From the IMG/VR virus record IMGVR_UViG_3300032319_000326, positions 27,734 through 91,733 of that record: 64,000 bases of DNA; one strand, written 5' to 3'. The DNA is from a virus (taxonomy: Duplodnaviria; Caudoviricetes). Positions within the stretch are counted from its first letter, which is position 1, and each line of letters begins with the position of its first letter. The notes under the pieces are model-generated. The model was not told the origin of the DNA. It saw nothing but the letters and a program-made list of their open reading frames with translations, and made no database searches. Both the position numbers and the translations under genes were made by a program. Positions 16,612-21,865 of this stretch are shown piece by piece.

Positions 16612-16651
16612 ATGGTTATATTAGGATTAGATTCATCTACATCAGTAACAG
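16612..16651 (+). pseudogene. Orphaned original 5' end of the RuvC gene (MVILGLDSSTSVT)
   Basis: ATG GTT ATA TTA GGA TTA GAT TCA TCT ACA TCA GTA ACA encodes the RuvC first catalytic strand (ILGLD), then runs into AT-rich sequence. Confidence 0.75.
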
Positions 16652-16709
16652 TTATAGTTTTGTACAAAAATTTGTATTTTTTTGTATATAATATGATATT
16701 TATTATTAT

Positions 16710-16841
16710 ATGAAACAAAAAGATTTAAAAACAGTAAGAATTCCACTTGAAATTTATAATTTATTAAAATTACATTGTGACAAAAAAGGATATAAAATAT
16801 ATAAATTTTTATCTGAATTAATAACTCAAAACGTAAAATAA
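16710..16841 (+). CDS. Small ribbon-helix-helix-like DNA-binding protein (43 aa; below ORF-track cutoff)
   Basis: MKQKDLKTVRIPLEIYNLLKLHCDKKGYKIYKFLSELITQNVK has an RHH-like pattern. TATTTATT upstream. Confidence 0.6.
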   Translation: MKQKDLKTVRIPLEIYNLLKLHCDKKGYKIYKFLSELITQNVK

Positions 16842-17595: not shown

Positions 17596-18516
17596 ATGAT
17601 TAATAGTTCGGTTATAGAAACACTTTCAAAGTTGTTTAAGCAAAAACCTCAAATCCAAAAAGGCGGAGTTGAGATATTAGTGTTTTGTCCGAATTGCAAT
17701 CACCATAAAAGAAAACTAAATATCAATACTACAACAGGTTTTTATCAATGTTGGATAGGATGTGGATTTAGCGGAAAAAGTTTTCATAGTCTTCTAAAAA
17801 AAGTAAAAGCGACCAGAGATTTTTATGAAATCCTATGTAAGGATAGACCGCGAGTTTTAGATAAAATTAAAAAAGATGAAGTAAGACTTGAACTTCCACA
17901 TGAATTTCATCCTCTATATAAATCTTCTTCTGATCCGGCATACAAACACGCATTAAATTATTGTTTGAAAAGAAATCTTAGTATACACGAAATCGTTCGT
18001 TATAATATTGGTTATTGTACAGAAGGTCCATTTGCAAATAAAGTTATTGTTCCGTCATACGATAAAGAAGGAAATTTAAATTTTTATTGTGGTCGAGATT
18101 TTTATGGAGGTAAGTTTAAATATCGACTGTGTGATGGTAGCAAAGATATAATCGGATTTGAATTATTTACGGATTTCAATCAACCAATTACAATCGTCGA
18201 AGGACCATTTGATGCTTTATCTGTTAAATATAATGTAGTTCCATTATTTGGTAAAACGTTATCAAAAAAGCTTAAGTTGAAGTTGACGGAAAATAAACCA
18301 CCAAGGGTTAATGTCCTACTGGATAATGATGCTCTAACATCGAGTCTGAAAATATGTGAATTTTTAGTTTCTAACAATGTAGAAACACACTTAATTTTAT
18401 TGGACGGTAAAGATCCAAGTGACATTGGTCACGAAAAAACTTGGCAAACCATCAGCTGTGGTGTTAGAATGGATGAAAGTGTATTATACAGATATAAATT
18501 AATAAATAAACTATGA
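17596..18516 (+). CDS. DNA primase (Zn finger + TOPRIM)
   Basis: CPNC...CWIGC Zn-binding, VEGPFDA and LDNDA TOPRIM motifs. Confidence 0.85.
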   Translation: MINSSVIETLSKLFKQKPQIQKGGVEILVFCPNCNHHKRKLNINTTTGFYQCWIGCGFSGKSFHSLLKKVKATRDFYEILCKDRPRVLDKIKKDEVRLELPHEFHPLYKSSSDPAYKHALNYCLKRNLSIHEIVRYNIGYCTEGPFANKVIVPSYDKEGNLNFYCGRDFYGGKFKYRLCDGSKDIIGFELFTDFNQPITIVEGPFDALSVKYNVVPLFGKTLSKKLKLKLTENKPPRVNVLLDNDALTSSLKICEFLVSNNVETHLILLDGKDPSDIGHEKTWQTISCGVRMDESVLYRYKLINKL

Positions 18517-19223
18517 TCGTATTAAAAAATACCGACGATAAAATCAATTGTGTGATGCATGTTGCGGATATTCACATTCGTTTGACAAAACGACACGATG
18601 AGTATACATCTGTATTTGAAAGATTTTATAATGCATTAGACAAAGCTAAGACTTTAAATGCAATCTTAGTTATTGCAGGCGATGTTTTTCACAATAAATC
18701 CGATTTGAGTCCCGAGTGCGTTAAAATCGGAAGTGATTTTCTAAGAAATTGCGCAGATCGTGTGCCTGTAATTCTAACCGCTGGCAATCACGATGCTACA
18801 TTAGCAAATAAATCTAGACTTGACTGTTTAACCCCAATTGTACAAGCACTAAATCACCCTAATTTGTATTATCTCAAAAATACAGAGGTATTTCGCTTTG
18901 AAAATATATTGTTTAATAATTTCAGTGTATTTGATGATCCAGATAAGTACATAAGATACGAGGATATTCCGTCTAAATACCGTGTAGAGACGGATCATCA
19001 CATTGCATTATTCCATGGGCCAGTAAACAATGCTGTTACCGATGTAGGATATACTGTAAGCAATCGTGCTATTACAAATGAACTATTTGATGGCCATCAC
19101 ATTGCTATGTTGGGTGACATTCACAAACATCAAGTAATTCCAAATCCCGAAATAGTTGTATCTGAAGAGGAATTGATGAAATTAGACTTAAATGAATGGG
19201 AAATTGTGGAAGAAATTCCATAG
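18513..19223 (+). CDS. sbcD: Mre11/SbcD (T4 gp47-like) nuclease, N-terminal fragment
   Basis: DIH, GDVFH, GNHD, FHG and GDIH metallophosphoesterase motifs. The final motif is missing and is found in the next ORF. Confidence 0.85.
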   Translation: MIVLKNTDDKINCVMHVADIHIRLTKRHDEYTSVFERFYNALDKAKTLNAILVIAGDVFHNKSDLSPECVKIGSDFLRNCADRVPVILTAGNHDATLANKSRLDCLTPIVQALNHPNLYYLKNTEVFRFENILFNNFSVFDDPDKYIRYEDIPSKYRVETDHHIALFHGPVNNAVTDVGYTVSNRAITNELFDGHHIAMLGDIHKHQVIPNPEIVVSEEELMKLDLNEWEIVEEIP

Positions 19224-19307
19224 TTTTGTACAGAATTATGGAAAAGAGAGATAAAAAAATCCGATTTTGAAGTTGAGTTTTTAAAACATTTAGGCGATAA
19301 AATATGA
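19220..19307 (+). pseudogene. Remnant of a deleted endonuclease cassette between the two SbcD halves
   Basis: Begins with ATAGTTTTGTACA (also at 16654). Residual frame ELWKREIKKSDFEVEFLKHLGDKI* resembles a Vsr/DUF559-type C-terminus and overlaps the next start (ATGA). Confidence 0.5.
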
Positions 19308-21865
19308 AAAAATATGTAGTTAGAAAAAAGTATCCAGTGATTGCATACGCATCCAGTATGATTCAACAAAATCATGGCGAAGAACTTAAAGGTCATGGAT
19401 TTTTGATGTGGGATCTAAAGAGAAAAGTTTATAAACACTATGAACTAAAAAATGATTATGGCTTTTATACAATTGAAATAAATAAAGGTAAGTTAACAAC
19501 TGATATTAGTGACATCCCAAAGAAAGTTCGTATTCGTACACTTTGTTTCGAATCTATTCCATCTCAGGTAAAAGAGATTATTAATGAAGTAAAGAATAAG
19601 TGTGACATCATTGAAACTACATTCAATCGAATTGACGAACCATCAACGGATTTGACTTTAAAATCTGGCCAGATATTTGAAATTCACAACATTTTTGATG
19701 TGGATTATCAAAATAAATTAATTGAGGAAAATCTTTTATCTAAGAATGTTTCTTCCGATCTTGTCTATAAAGTCAAAGAGTTGAATAAAACTATTAATTT
19801 AGAAATACCAAAAGATAAAGCTCCAAAGAATATTCGTTGGAAACCAAAGATGTTTGAATTTGACAATATGTTTAGTTACGGAGAAGGAAACGTAATTGAC
19901 TTTACCAAATTAAAAGGCACAATTGGATTATTTGCTCCAAATGCAAGTGGCAAGTCTAGTATTATGGACGCTTTGGCATTTTGTGTATTCGATAAGTTTA
20001 GCAAAGGATATAAAGCCGTTCATGTATTGAATACTCAAAAAATGAGTTTTCGTTGTAAGTTTAATTTTGAAGTAAATGGAGTAGATTATTTCATTGAACG
20101 GGATGGTAAAGCTGATAAAAAAGGAAATGTCAAGGTTGACGTTAAGTTTTATAAGATCGAAAATGACAATGAAGTACCATTAAACGGAGAAGCTCGTCGT
20201 AGTACTAATGACATCATCAGAGATTATGTTGGTACTTACGAAGACTTTATTCTTACTGTATTAAGCATACAAAACAGTAAAGCCGGATCATTTATTGATT
20301 TGGGTCAAACAGAACGTAAAGATTTGTTGTGCCAATTTATGGGTTTAACTGTATTTGATCAGTTATATACAATTGCAAATGATAAGTTCAAAGAAACTAA
20401 CACATTACTTAAGAATATTAGTAAAGATCAGTTAATTGAGGAGTTGCAGAACGTATCTGGTAGTATAGATTTAAATAATATTAAAATATCAGAGTGCAAT
20501 GATAAAATCAAAGAGTACGAAGCTTCAAAAGAAACGTATAATAATAACTTATTAGAGTTATCTAATGACATTGTAAAAACTGCATCATTTGATTTGGATA
20601 TAACCATATTAGAATCAGAAAAGGTAAATCTTGATAACAGTATTTCTTCTTGTCAAATCGATATTGATCTTAAAAAGACTAAGTTTTCTGAAATAGAACT
20701 ACAGTTGACTGATTTGTCATCATCATTAAAAGCTTGTGAGAACATCGATGATGAATATGAACAATATAAGTCTTACAAAGATGAAGAAGTTAAAAAATCA
20801 TCCGAGATAGAAAAACTTAAAGTTGTTGTTAAGAATAAAATTGACAAACTTAAAAAGCTGGAAGATCATAAATACGATCCAAATTGTACTTATTGTACTA
20901 ATAACGTATTCGTAAAAGATGCAATCAAAACAAAAGAAGAGATTGAATCTGACAAAAACAAAGGAAAAATTTTGGTAGATGAATACAATTCTATCAAAAA
21001 GAAATTAGAATCATTTGGAGACATAGATCTTCGTTATAAAGAATGTCAGCGTGTTAATTCCGAAAAAGTTAAATTAGAAAAATCAAGAGAGATTTTATCT
21101 ACTGCAATATTGCGCGATGAAAATGTTTTGATTACTCGTCAGAACAAGTTAAAGACGGTGACAGACAATATTGATATTTTTTATAAAAACAAAGACATCA
21201 TTGAAAATAACTCCAAATTATTAAAAGAAATAAACGATGTTAAAAATATTATAAAATCAATCGAATCAGATATTAAAACTATTAATAGTCGATTGTTTTC
21301 AACTTCTACTGAAAAAGGAAAGTTGGAGCTTCAATACAAGAATACTACTGATCAACTAAATAAAGTAAAAGAGTTGGAAGATTCGTATGAGGCTTATAAG
21401 TTGTATACTAATATTATCAGTAGAGATGGTATTCCATATGAAATCATCACTAAAACTTTGCCTGAAATAGAAAAACAAGTTAATAATATTTTGCAACAAA
21501 TCGTTGAATTCTCTATCACTTTACAAACAGATGGCAAGAATATTATGACTAATATTGTTTATGACGATAAACGTTGGCCATTAGAAATGGCTAGTGGTAT
21601 GGAGAAGTTTGTTAGTGGTTTGGCTATCAGAGTAGCGTTAATCAATATTAGCAATTTACCAAGACCTAACATTATCTGCATAGACGAGGGATTTGGATGT
21701 GCTGATAGCGATCATTTGGGTCAAATGGGAGCGTTGTTTAGTTATTTGAAACATCAATTTGATTTTATTTGGATAATTAGCCATTTGGATCAGATGAGAG
21801 ATATGGTAGACGAACAAGTAGAAATAAAAAAAGAAAATGGTTTCAGTAAAGTAGTATATATTTGA
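19304..21865 (+). CDS. sbcC: SbcD C-terminal part fused to Rad50/SbcC (T4 gp46-like) ATPase
   Basis: IAYASSMIQQNHGE (SbcD late motif), Walker A APNASGKS, Zn hook CTYC, signature ASGME, Walker B ICIDEGF. Confidence 0.88.
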   Translation: MKKYVVRKKYPVIAYASSMIQQNHGEELKGHGFLMWDLKRKVYKHYELKNDYGFYTIEINKGKLTTDISDIPKKVRIRTLCFESIPSQVKEIINEVKNKCDIIETTFNRIDEPSTDLTLKSGQIFEIHNIFDVDYQNKLIEENLLSKNVSSDLVYKVKELNKTINLEIPKDKAPKNIRWKPKMFEFDNMFSYGEGNVIDFTKLKGTIGLFAPNASGKSSIMDALAFCVFDKFSKGYKAVHVLNTQKMSFRCKFNFEVNGVDYFIERDGKADKKGNVKVDVKFYKIENDNEVPLNGEARRSTNDIIRDYVGTYEDFILTVLSIQNSKAGSFIDLGQTERKDLLCQFMGLTVFDQLYTIANDKFKETNTLLKNISKDQLIEELQNVSGSIDLNNIKISECNDKIKEYEASKETYNNNLLELSNDIVKTASFDLDITILESEKVNLDNSISSCQIDIDLKKTKFSEIELQLTDLSSSLKACENIDDEYEQYKSYKDEEVKKSSEIEKLKVVVKNKIDKLKKLEDHKYDPNCTYCTNNVFVKDAIKTKEEIESDKNKGKILVDEYNSIKKKLESFGDIDLRYKECQRVNSEKVKLEKSREILSTAILRDENVLITRQNKLKTVTDNIDIFYKNKDIIENNSKLLKEINDVKNIIKSIESDIKTINSRLFSTSTEKGKLELQYKNTTDQLNKVKELEDSYEAYKLYTNIISRDGIPYEIITKTLPEIEKQVNNILQQIVEFSITLQTDGKNIMTNIVYDDKRWPLEMASGMEKFVSGLAIRVALINISNLPRPNIICIDEGFGCADSDHLGQMGALFSYLKHQFDFIWIISHLDQMRDMVDEQVEIKKENGFSKVVYI

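Follow-up and report, generated by a model that had tools for sequence, protein, structure and literature searches.

How does a phage gene for an SbcD/Mre11-type nuclease come to be broken inside the phosphoesterase fold, and do its pieces still act as one enzyme? These questions are raised by a stretch of 64,000 nucleotides, here called the window, which makes up the last 64 kb of the 91.7-kb IMG/VR virus record IMGVR_UViG_3300032319_000326 (about 30% complete by CheckV). Two adjacent open reading frames (ORFs) on its plus strand, ORF A and ORF B, correspond to the two parts of one gene. Here, we report that they are most probably (roughly 85%) a phage gene of the single-chain SbcD-SbcC (Mre11-Rad50-like) type in a fractured, genes-in-pieces form, in which the break holds the relic of a homing endonuclease that is found intact at the same site in relatives.

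ORF A (18513-19223, plus strand, 236 aa) is an SbcD/Mre11-type calcineurin-like phosphoesterase (Pfam Metallophos, E 7e-11, 43 bits against a cut-off of 21.5; phrog_100, SbcD-like), and ORF B (19304-21865, plus strand, 853 aa) is an SbcC/Rad50-type ATPase with the rest of the nuclease at its N-terminus (Pfam AAA_23 above cut-off; phrog_77, SbcC-like, E 4.5e-50). Lying 80 nt apart on the same strand, the two are collinear with unsplit homologues of about 1062 aa. As the original prediction had described, the nuclease is split after GDIHKHQ, the end of the conserved part of ORF A (codons to 19133), and is continued there by an acidic tail of 29 residues (19134-19220, net charge -8) that ends at TAG 19221-19223. 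ORF B opens with a basic head of 11 residues (19304-19336, net charge +5), which runs straight into a strand and the QQNHGE motif that lies 14-29 residues past GDIHK in unsplit homologues. Because an in-frame TAA is found two codons upstream, ATG 19304 is the sole possible start of the C-half. All of the SbcD/Mre11 metal-ligand motifs I-V (DxH, GD, GNHD, H, GxxH) are contained in the N-half, where D19/H21, D57, GNHD 91-94 (N92-D94), H168 and D202/H204 are invariant or nearly so (alignment A2). In ORF B the residues G216-K217 (Walker A), C528/C531 (zinc hook), D794-E795-G796 (Walker B) and H827 (H-loop) are invariant (alignment A3). The locus is made up of the following parts.

18513-19133, plus strand: body of the N-half, motifs I-V up to GDIHKHQ (Metallophos, phrog_100; 95% identical to the unsplit locus L004)
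19134-19223, plus strand: cassette-borne acidic tail, 29 codons and TAG (absent from 79 of 80 IMG/VR relatives)
19224-19237, plus strand: shortened leader of the lost endonuclease gene (alignments A1 and A6)
19238-19253, plus strand: 5' relic of the endonuclease ORF, its first 5-6 codons, MEKRDK (aligned to the starts of the L083 and L084 ORFs)
19254-19307, plus strand: 3' relic of the endonuclease ORF, its last 17 codons and TGA (alignment A1 and search of the record)
19304-19336, plus strand: cassette-borne basic head, 11 codons, start of the C-half (match to the heads of L083, L084 and L085)
19337-19830, plus strand: rest of the nuclease core (two strands, QQNHGE), capping domain and linker (collinear with unsplit residues of about 225-385)
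19831-21865, plus strand: SbcC/Rad50-type ABC ATPase, including its coiled coil and zinc hook, joined to the C-part of the nuclease (Pfam, PHROG)
19275-19409, plus strand: co-conversion tract, the flank that came with the cassette (identity to L084 against that to L004 and L010)

The agent of the break is preserved in relatives. In three Logan assemblies (L083, L084 and L085) an ORF of 274-276 codons, whose stop overlaps the start of the C-half, is flanked by homologous tail and head, and L093 is likewise occupied by an intact endonuclease ORF between tail and head. The encoded protein combines an N-terminal four-Cys finger with a C-terminal Vsr/DUF559-type nuclease and belongs to a family of 60 members, several of which are named very-short-patch-repair endonuclease by the Joint Genome Institute (JGI). 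Invariant residues of the L084 protein (P0011) are D197, D210, G211, D212, H215 and D237, with E208 close to invariant. A profile built from 30 members reaches PDB 3hrl (DUF559 endonuclease-like, E 8e-4) and, weakly, 3r3p ('Mobile intron protein', E 0.034); a PDB search with a single endonuclease sequence gave no match, and the Pfam Vsr and DUF559 matches of the relatives' proteins fall below the cut-off. PHROGs places them with homing endonucleases. The relatives' protein is a predicted Vsr-like (EDxHD-type) homing endonuclease. It matches the Vsr-like family described by Dassa, London, Stoddard and Pietrokovski (2009; Nucleic Acids Res 37:2560, PMC2677866), for which the name EDxHD came into use later, after I-Bth0305I (PMC3239194). 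Phage LR756508 (L002, 484 kb) has a TnsA-like PD-(D/E)xK ORF at the break instead.

Aligned to L083 and L084, the 80-nt spacer of the window resolves into 14 nt of leader followed by the first 16 or so and the last 54 or so nucleotides of the endonuclease ORF. About 761 nt of that ORF is gone, leaving a 70-nt relic of 23 codons without any catalytic residue, and the leader is 26 nt shorter than in L084 and lacks the promoter-like TATTTATT box. The 5' relic opens a dead ORF of 10 codons (19238-19270), while the TGA of the 3' relic overlaps the ATG of the C-half (ATGA). When the L084 endonuclease was searched against the whole record, the only match was the spacer (residues 253-276, E 1.2e-4). 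The original prediction had held that an 80-bp endonuclease remnant separates the halves and that a homing endonuclease caused the split and survives in the window as a relic alone; both points are borne out by the alignment to either end of the 276-codon ORF and by the occupied alleles. Other independent relics were found in L067 (53-nt spacer) and in L091 (173 nt, with a recognisable C-terminal nuclease motif).

The leader sequences deserve a separate remark. The 13-mer ATAGTTTTGTACA occurs twice in the window, at 16654, ahead of an ORF of 43 aa that is directly followed by a RuvC-like gene, and at 19220, where it overlaps the stop of the N-half. A TTTTGT-type element followed by a TATTTATTA box a few bases before ATG is seen at 16648-16716 and 19220-19232, and a like arrangement is found upstream of the endonuclease ORFs of L084 (5703-5760), L083 (5703-5760) and L093 (811-880). 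The element looks like a common leader or promoter of mobile cassettes.

Uninterrupted forms of the gene are plentiful. In 79 of 80 IMG/VR loci it is uninterrupted over about 1062 codons, the place of the break being taken by a loop of 12 residues, and sixteen of these loci are 93-95% identical to ORF A (L004, 95% over the N-body). The closest cultured relative, Microcystis phage Mel-JY01 (about 40% identity), also has a primase followed by the nuclease gene, which encodes a single 1066-aa SbcD-SbcC fusion in which motif V and the next strand are seven residues apart. When 1.84 billion cluster representatives were searched exhaustively with phmmer, 3091 relatives were found, of which the best 150 were classified together with eight locus-derived sequences. 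Among these 158, 121 were scored as unsplit with a short loop (14-29 residues), 12 have a tail-type ending and 9 are unsplit but 20-40 residues longer at the break site; 15 were left unclassified by pattern, being mostly short-loop on inspection, and 1 was without a motif match. P0152 was additionally reassigned as split for the phylogenetic tree. The break with homologous tail and head recurs in independent assemblies (L067, L083-L086, L088-L094 and L002) and is therefore not an assembly error.

Two further kinds of interruption were observed in the gene family. In L062 (5995-8823) and L070 (5980-8292) an otherwise unsplit fusion is ended by an internal stop after 942 and 770 codons, respectively, against about 1064, and these early stops may be frameshifts, further insertions or assembly errors. 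In relatives P0037, P0162 and P0025 a LAGLIDADG-type intein of about 320 residues is located near motif III (GNHD). P0037 and P0162 bear this intein in addition to a tail-type split at motif V, so that the gene family is host to an intein as well as to a fracture without one.

Tail, endonuclease and head travel between phages as one cassette, to judge from the way in which their similarity departs from that of the genes that surround them. The host genes of L083 and L084 share 54-60% protein and about 55-65% DNA identity, but nucleotide identity rises to 80-93% over a block that starts with the tail, takes in endonuclease and head and extends some 150 nt into the C-half. The window tail is 76-83% identical to the tails of L083 and L084, with the L083 body at only 59%; the window head is identical in L084 and L085 and 91% identical in L083. 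Among cassette-bearing alleles the tail stands at 83% and the head at 91% against 54-59% for the bodies. In synonymous divergence (dS), L084 and L085 differ by 0.045 over tail and head and by 3.2 over the N-body. Positions 19275-19409 of the window are 88-89% identical to the cassette-bearing L084 and 55-77% identical to L004 and L010, an order that reverses downstream, and outside this tract the window gene is a mosaic nearest to unsplit L004 or L010. A FastTree phylogeny was built from 156 N-bodies, without P0054 and P0086. Its 13 split rows require 13 changes, of which starred branches force at least 7, and the nearest kin of a split allele is short-loop in 12 of 13 cases. The block of identity, the dS contrast, the mosaic and the tree together form the pattern expected from homing with co-conversion. 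Recombination has also affected other parts of the gene: 18487-18711 is 96-99% identical to L004, 20445-21350 is about 90% identical to L010 and 53-80% to L004 and L084, and the SbcC part as a whole is a recombination mosaic (19400-21400 compared with L004, L010, L023 and L084).

The tail and the head are halves of one small insert, because they are continuous in nine unsplit representatives and every split allele is broken at the insert's turn. In the nine (P0015, P0021, P0028, P0038, P0044, P0047, P0095, P0128 and P0138) a continuous insertion of 41-55 residues lies between motif V and QQNHGE. Its first part aligns to the tail (for P0015, P0028 and P0095 the phmmer alignment reaches query residue 228-233) and is linked by a short polar turn to the last part, which corresponds to the head; unsplit P0038 is the starred sister of split P0043. 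From the sequence pattern and the co-fold interface described below, the shape of the insert would be strand-helix-strand, turn and strand. In alignment A4 the free tails of split N-halves are misplaced by MAFFT. The two peptides, which had been suggested as a possible protein-tag pair, were not found to be a general one: they are the halves of an insert that is uninterrupted in unsplit homologues, and no such pair was seen at any other gene in about 1 Mb of related phage DNA or in word-based protein searches. A pattern search of six-frame translations of the window and the relatives' loci found the tail motif only at SbcD breaks, and a protein search with residues 190-236 retrieved only SbcD N-halves at similar length and, at greater length, no protein bearing the tail; the longer unsplit carriers of the insert surfaced only in the exhaustive phmmer search. 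The original prediction had named an ordinary insertion in unsplit homologues, coupled with a non-functional split allele, as one outcome that would speak against it. The former was found, whereas there is no sign that the split allele is non-functional.

The gap between the halves forms a graded series among the alleles, from 867-908 nt with the full endonuclease through 173, 80, 53 and 16 nt to a shared TAATG (-1) and finally to -11 nt, which may be read as decay toward re-fusion. At the near end of this series there is no spacer at all: stop and start share TAATG in L089 and L090 (about 4740-4748 in L089), and in L088 the frames overlap by 11 nt (1115-1125). These junctions could be coupled re-initiation sites or lie one indel away from a fused gene.

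Two steps in the history that we propose for the window allele are well supported. First, recombination brought a mobile cassette into the variable loop that separates motif V from the following core strand, where some 12 native residues were replaced; the conserved codons on either side, for motif V and for that strand, would have acted as homology arms. The cassette is made up of a 29-codon tail with its stop, a leader, the gene of a Vsr-like/EDxHD homing endonuclease and a head of 11 codons, the ATG of which overlaps the stop of the endonuclease gene. Second, two later deletions, of about 761 and 26 nt, reduced the endonuclease gene and its leader, so that a 70-nt relic of the gene is left and the nuclease gene is still in two pieces. 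The pieces would be translated separately, the C-half from ATG 19304 in an AT-rich context without a Shine-Dalgarno sequence, as is typical of this genome, and would re-associate non-covalently, the C-half providing the missing strands of the phosphoesterase sandwich. Being halves of one insert cut at its turn, tail and head may pair, and their charges may clasp the break electrostatically. The persistence of the relic allele is probably due to the immunity of its disrupted target site to the endonuclease, and the path of decay could go on to a re-fused gene that retains the insert.

A different origin of the insert would have the endonuclease land in the turn of an old native mini-domain, in which case tail and head would not be adapted to the split. 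The continuous insert with its varied turns in nine unsplit representatives agrees with this, and homing normally co-converts flanking exon sequence and could have carried a native insert along. On the other hand, the unsplit forms bearing the insert do not make up a single clade and are scattered on the tree (9 rows, 7 changes), the nearest kin of the split alleles are almost all short-loop as mentioned above, and the gradation from full endonuclease to overlapping stop and start points to re-fusion as the source of some continuous forms. We consider a native mini-domain possible, if somewhat doubtful. It touches the origin of the insert only and is compatible with the rest of the history proposed here.

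Whatever its origin, the insert plausibly lets the halves re-associate, and reassembly would not involve ligation. Tail and head are under purifying selection at the protein level, as indicated by a ratio of non-synonymous to synonymous substitution rates (dN/dS) of 0.16-0.33 at dS 0.3-0.7, a value calculated over 40 codons with about 10 changes of each kind. Co-folding, which had been put forward as a check on the original prediction, was performed for ORF A residues 1-236 with ORF B residues 1-175, using a custom alignment for each chain. It gave a score of 0.91, the best of three controls scoring 0.00, and this mark is reached by 58 of 80 solved complexes and by 2 of 110 mismatched pairs, counts that hold only roughly here because custom alignments were used. 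The runs agree in at least 74% of contacts, the predicted local distance difference test score (pLDDT) of the partner is at least 67, and the confident interface comprises tail residues 208-218, 221, 224 and 227-236 and head residues 1-20. The charges of tail and head are complementary in 8 of the 9 alleles measured. The idea of tail and head as a reassembly module is supported by their conservation as protein and by the presence of both in the interface. Complementary charge has turned out to be common but not universal.

Several points weigh against the proposed history. The selection on tail and head is estimated from the small number of changes given above. A high co-fold score was to be expected from likeness to the solved Mre11/SbcD structures and from the two chains being pieces of one fold, and it therefore speaks for likeness and not for binding; tail-to-head pairs are not among the best co-fold contacts listed, and a direct pairing of the two is accordingly putative. 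Charge complementarity fails in L094, where the tail is +3 and the head +4. That split alleles function is deduced from their conservation alone. As the record is about 30% complete, an intact second copy elsewhere in the genome is possible. Finally, the insert could be a native mini-insert of the ancestral host allele, spread through co-conversion, or could have arisen with the cassette.

A harsher view of the locus is that the insertion inactivated the nuclease and that both ORFs are the decaying remnants of a dead or dying gene. The endonuclease has clearly decayed in the window, translational coupling to its stop has been lost, and the premature stops in unsplit L062 and L070 demonstrate that loss of the gene can happen. 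Yet both ORFs of the window are of full length, with the catalytic, Walker, hook and H-loop residues all intact, dN/dS of the N-body against L084 is 0.05, and selection on tail and head has been noted above. Both halves are open in at least ten independent split alleles from lineages 40-90% identical, and six of these keep both ORFs intact long after losing the endonuclease. A second Metallophos gene is absent from the 91.7-kb record, and a scan for promoters and terminators placed no terminator between the halves and gave no signal beyond shuffle expectation. A dead gene is accordingly a very unlikely explanation.

Still less credible is a rejoining of the halves by a self-splicing intron, by ribosomal bypass or by frameshifting. 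A matched pair of CCA codons could be taken as take-off and landing sites, the first being followed directly by the stop (CCA-TAG 19218-19223 to CCA 19334-19336), an in-frame GT...AG spans 19134-19330, and the 11-nt overlap of frames in L088 is readable as a frameshift site. The GT...AG and the CCA/CCA bypass were both rejected as coincidences. No match in the window attains the gathering score of an Rfam family, in keeping with the original prediction that an intron is lacking, and neither a group I nor a group II intron would fit into so short an interval, which in L083, L084 and L002 measures 867-908 nt with a full ORF. The CCA pair, 113 nt apart in the window, is not conserved (CCG/CCA in L084, absent in L067), and gap lengths among relatives span 908 to -11 nt. 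Although it precedes the supposed landing site, the head is conserved as protein, its ATG being conserved over the endonuclease stop, and splicing would remove the tail, which is under purifying selection.

A degenerate split intein, ligating the halves now or in the past, may be practically dismissed. In its favour, the N-parts of atypical split inteins measure about 25-30 residues, relatives of the nuclease gene host a LAGLIDADG intein at motif III, and this endonuclease family usually lies between split-intein halves in the fractured-gene loci presented in 2009 (PMC2677866). However, the tail begins with Val (Asn, Lys, Gln and others in relatives), where a split intein has Cys, Ser or Ala. 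A head of 11 residues cannot accommodate blocks F and G; it contains no His-Asn with Cys, Ser or Thr after it and ends in Tyr-Pro before Val. Pfam detects no intein domain in ORF A or ORF B, tail and head together add just 40 residues, and mature unsplit proteins keep the insert as an ordinary insertion. The absence of an intein reported in the original prediction is upheld.

The fracture itself has close precedents, and it represents no new mechanism: intein-less genes broken by endonucleases, SbcD included, have been in the literature since 2007-2009. A split of an SbcD-like gene without an intein was published from the Lake Gatun Global Ocean Sampling data by Dassa and co-workers (PMC2677866), and the third solution besides introns and inteins put forward in the original prediction is on that account not new. 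In the Lake Gatun locus a Vsr-like endonuclease ORF lies between the halves, its end overlapping the downstream start, and the upstream ORF has 25 extra C-terminal and the downstream ORF 9 extra N-terminal residues that are absent from unsplit SbcD (PMC2677866). The two loci have in common two adjacent ORFs, the lack of an intein, extra residues at the break and a freshwater, phage-like source. They differ in that the endonuclease of the window is a 70-nt relic, and the break site and tail could be compared by description only. The main text of Dassa et al. holds no report of cassette-borne travel, of selection or of a continuous form of the extra residues (PMC2677866), and among the papers searched no later one treats this split. 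Beyond the 2009 account, the extra peptides are found here to be cassette-borne, under selection and one insert in two halves, and a full series of decay is available.

Dassa et al. set the Lake Gatun gene beside that of Aeromonas phage Aeh1, in which nrdA is split by the HNH endonuclease gene mobE (Edgell and co-workers, cited in PMC2677866). As summarised there, the products of the Aeh1 gene were shown by experiment to reassemble into an active enzyme, and the downstream start overlaps the end of the endonuclease gene (PMC2677866). Both there and, to judge from the relic and the occupied relatives, in the window a free-standing homing endonuclease fractures an essential phage gene without intron or intein. 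Host gene, endonuclease family and break site are different, and the function of the window halves is an inference. I-Bth0305I of the EDxHD (Vsr-like) family (Taylor et al. 2011, Nucleic Acids Res 39:9705, PMC3239194; PDB 3R3P) resembles the nuclease of the L083, L084 and L093 ORFs in being of Vsr/DUF559 type with invariant acidic and His residues. It is encoded in a group I intron of recA, whereas the latter endonucleases are free-standing, and the match to 3r3p is weak.

Naturally split inteins are described from fractured phage genes such as gp41, NrdA, NrdJ, DnaE, TerL and others (PMC2677866), and the order of N-part, endonuclease (a relic in the window) and C-part is shared with these loci, as are oppositely charged strands at the break, which would help the halves to meet. 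Unlike split inteins, the SbcD alleles have no splicing residues or blocks, the halves would stay unligated and the extra peptides would remain in the enzyme. SbcD/SbcC, T4 gp47/gp46 and Mre11/Rad50 also bring nuclease and ATPase chemistry together in two non-covalently bound polypeptides. Unlike these, the family treated here is a single-chain fusion, and its break lies inside the phosphoesterase fold and not between nuclease and ATPase.

What the alleles offer is a natural series at one site, namely empty, occupied by an intact endonuclease, reduced to a relic as in the window, with abutting or overlapping stop and start, and re-fused with the insert. This series documents a cycle of invasion, decay and scar of a homing endonuclease inside an enzyme fold, with some 40 cassette-borne residues kept under selection. 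For annotation it implies that pairs of a 'truncated SbcD' and an 'SbcC with odd N-terminus' in large phages probably make up one functional unit. If tail and head are needed for reassembly, they would constitute a compact natural case of split-protein complementation in a metallophosphoesterase and a candidate small interaction pair. A more far-reaching proposal, speculative and in our opinion unlikely, is that the pair is the cassette's own charged clasp of about 40 residues, sparing the phage while an essential enzyme is broken within a folded domain and, once the endonuclease has decayed, sealable into the host protein as a permanent insert. If it were true, invasion by selfish elements would be a route to surface mini-domains of enzymes, and the pair might serve as a small heterodimerising tag in other settings.

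The surroundings of the gene add a few observations. The window has about 30% G+C, nearly all of its genes are packed on the plus strand, and the RuvC-like gene and a DnaG-type primase gene lie upstream of ORF A and ORF B. Nearly no Shine-Dalgarno-like sequence is found at 42 ORF starts, where the leaders are AT-rich and the ATG is often preceded by TAATAT or ATAAT; translation in the host may thus start without Shine-Dalgarno pairing. Genes for SegE-like GIY-YIG endonucleases are located just upstream of the primase in L067 (4588-4989, minus strand) and in Mel-JY01 (L001, 2238-2750), and the upstream flank of the primase in these two is a further hot spot for mobile elements near the nuclease gene.

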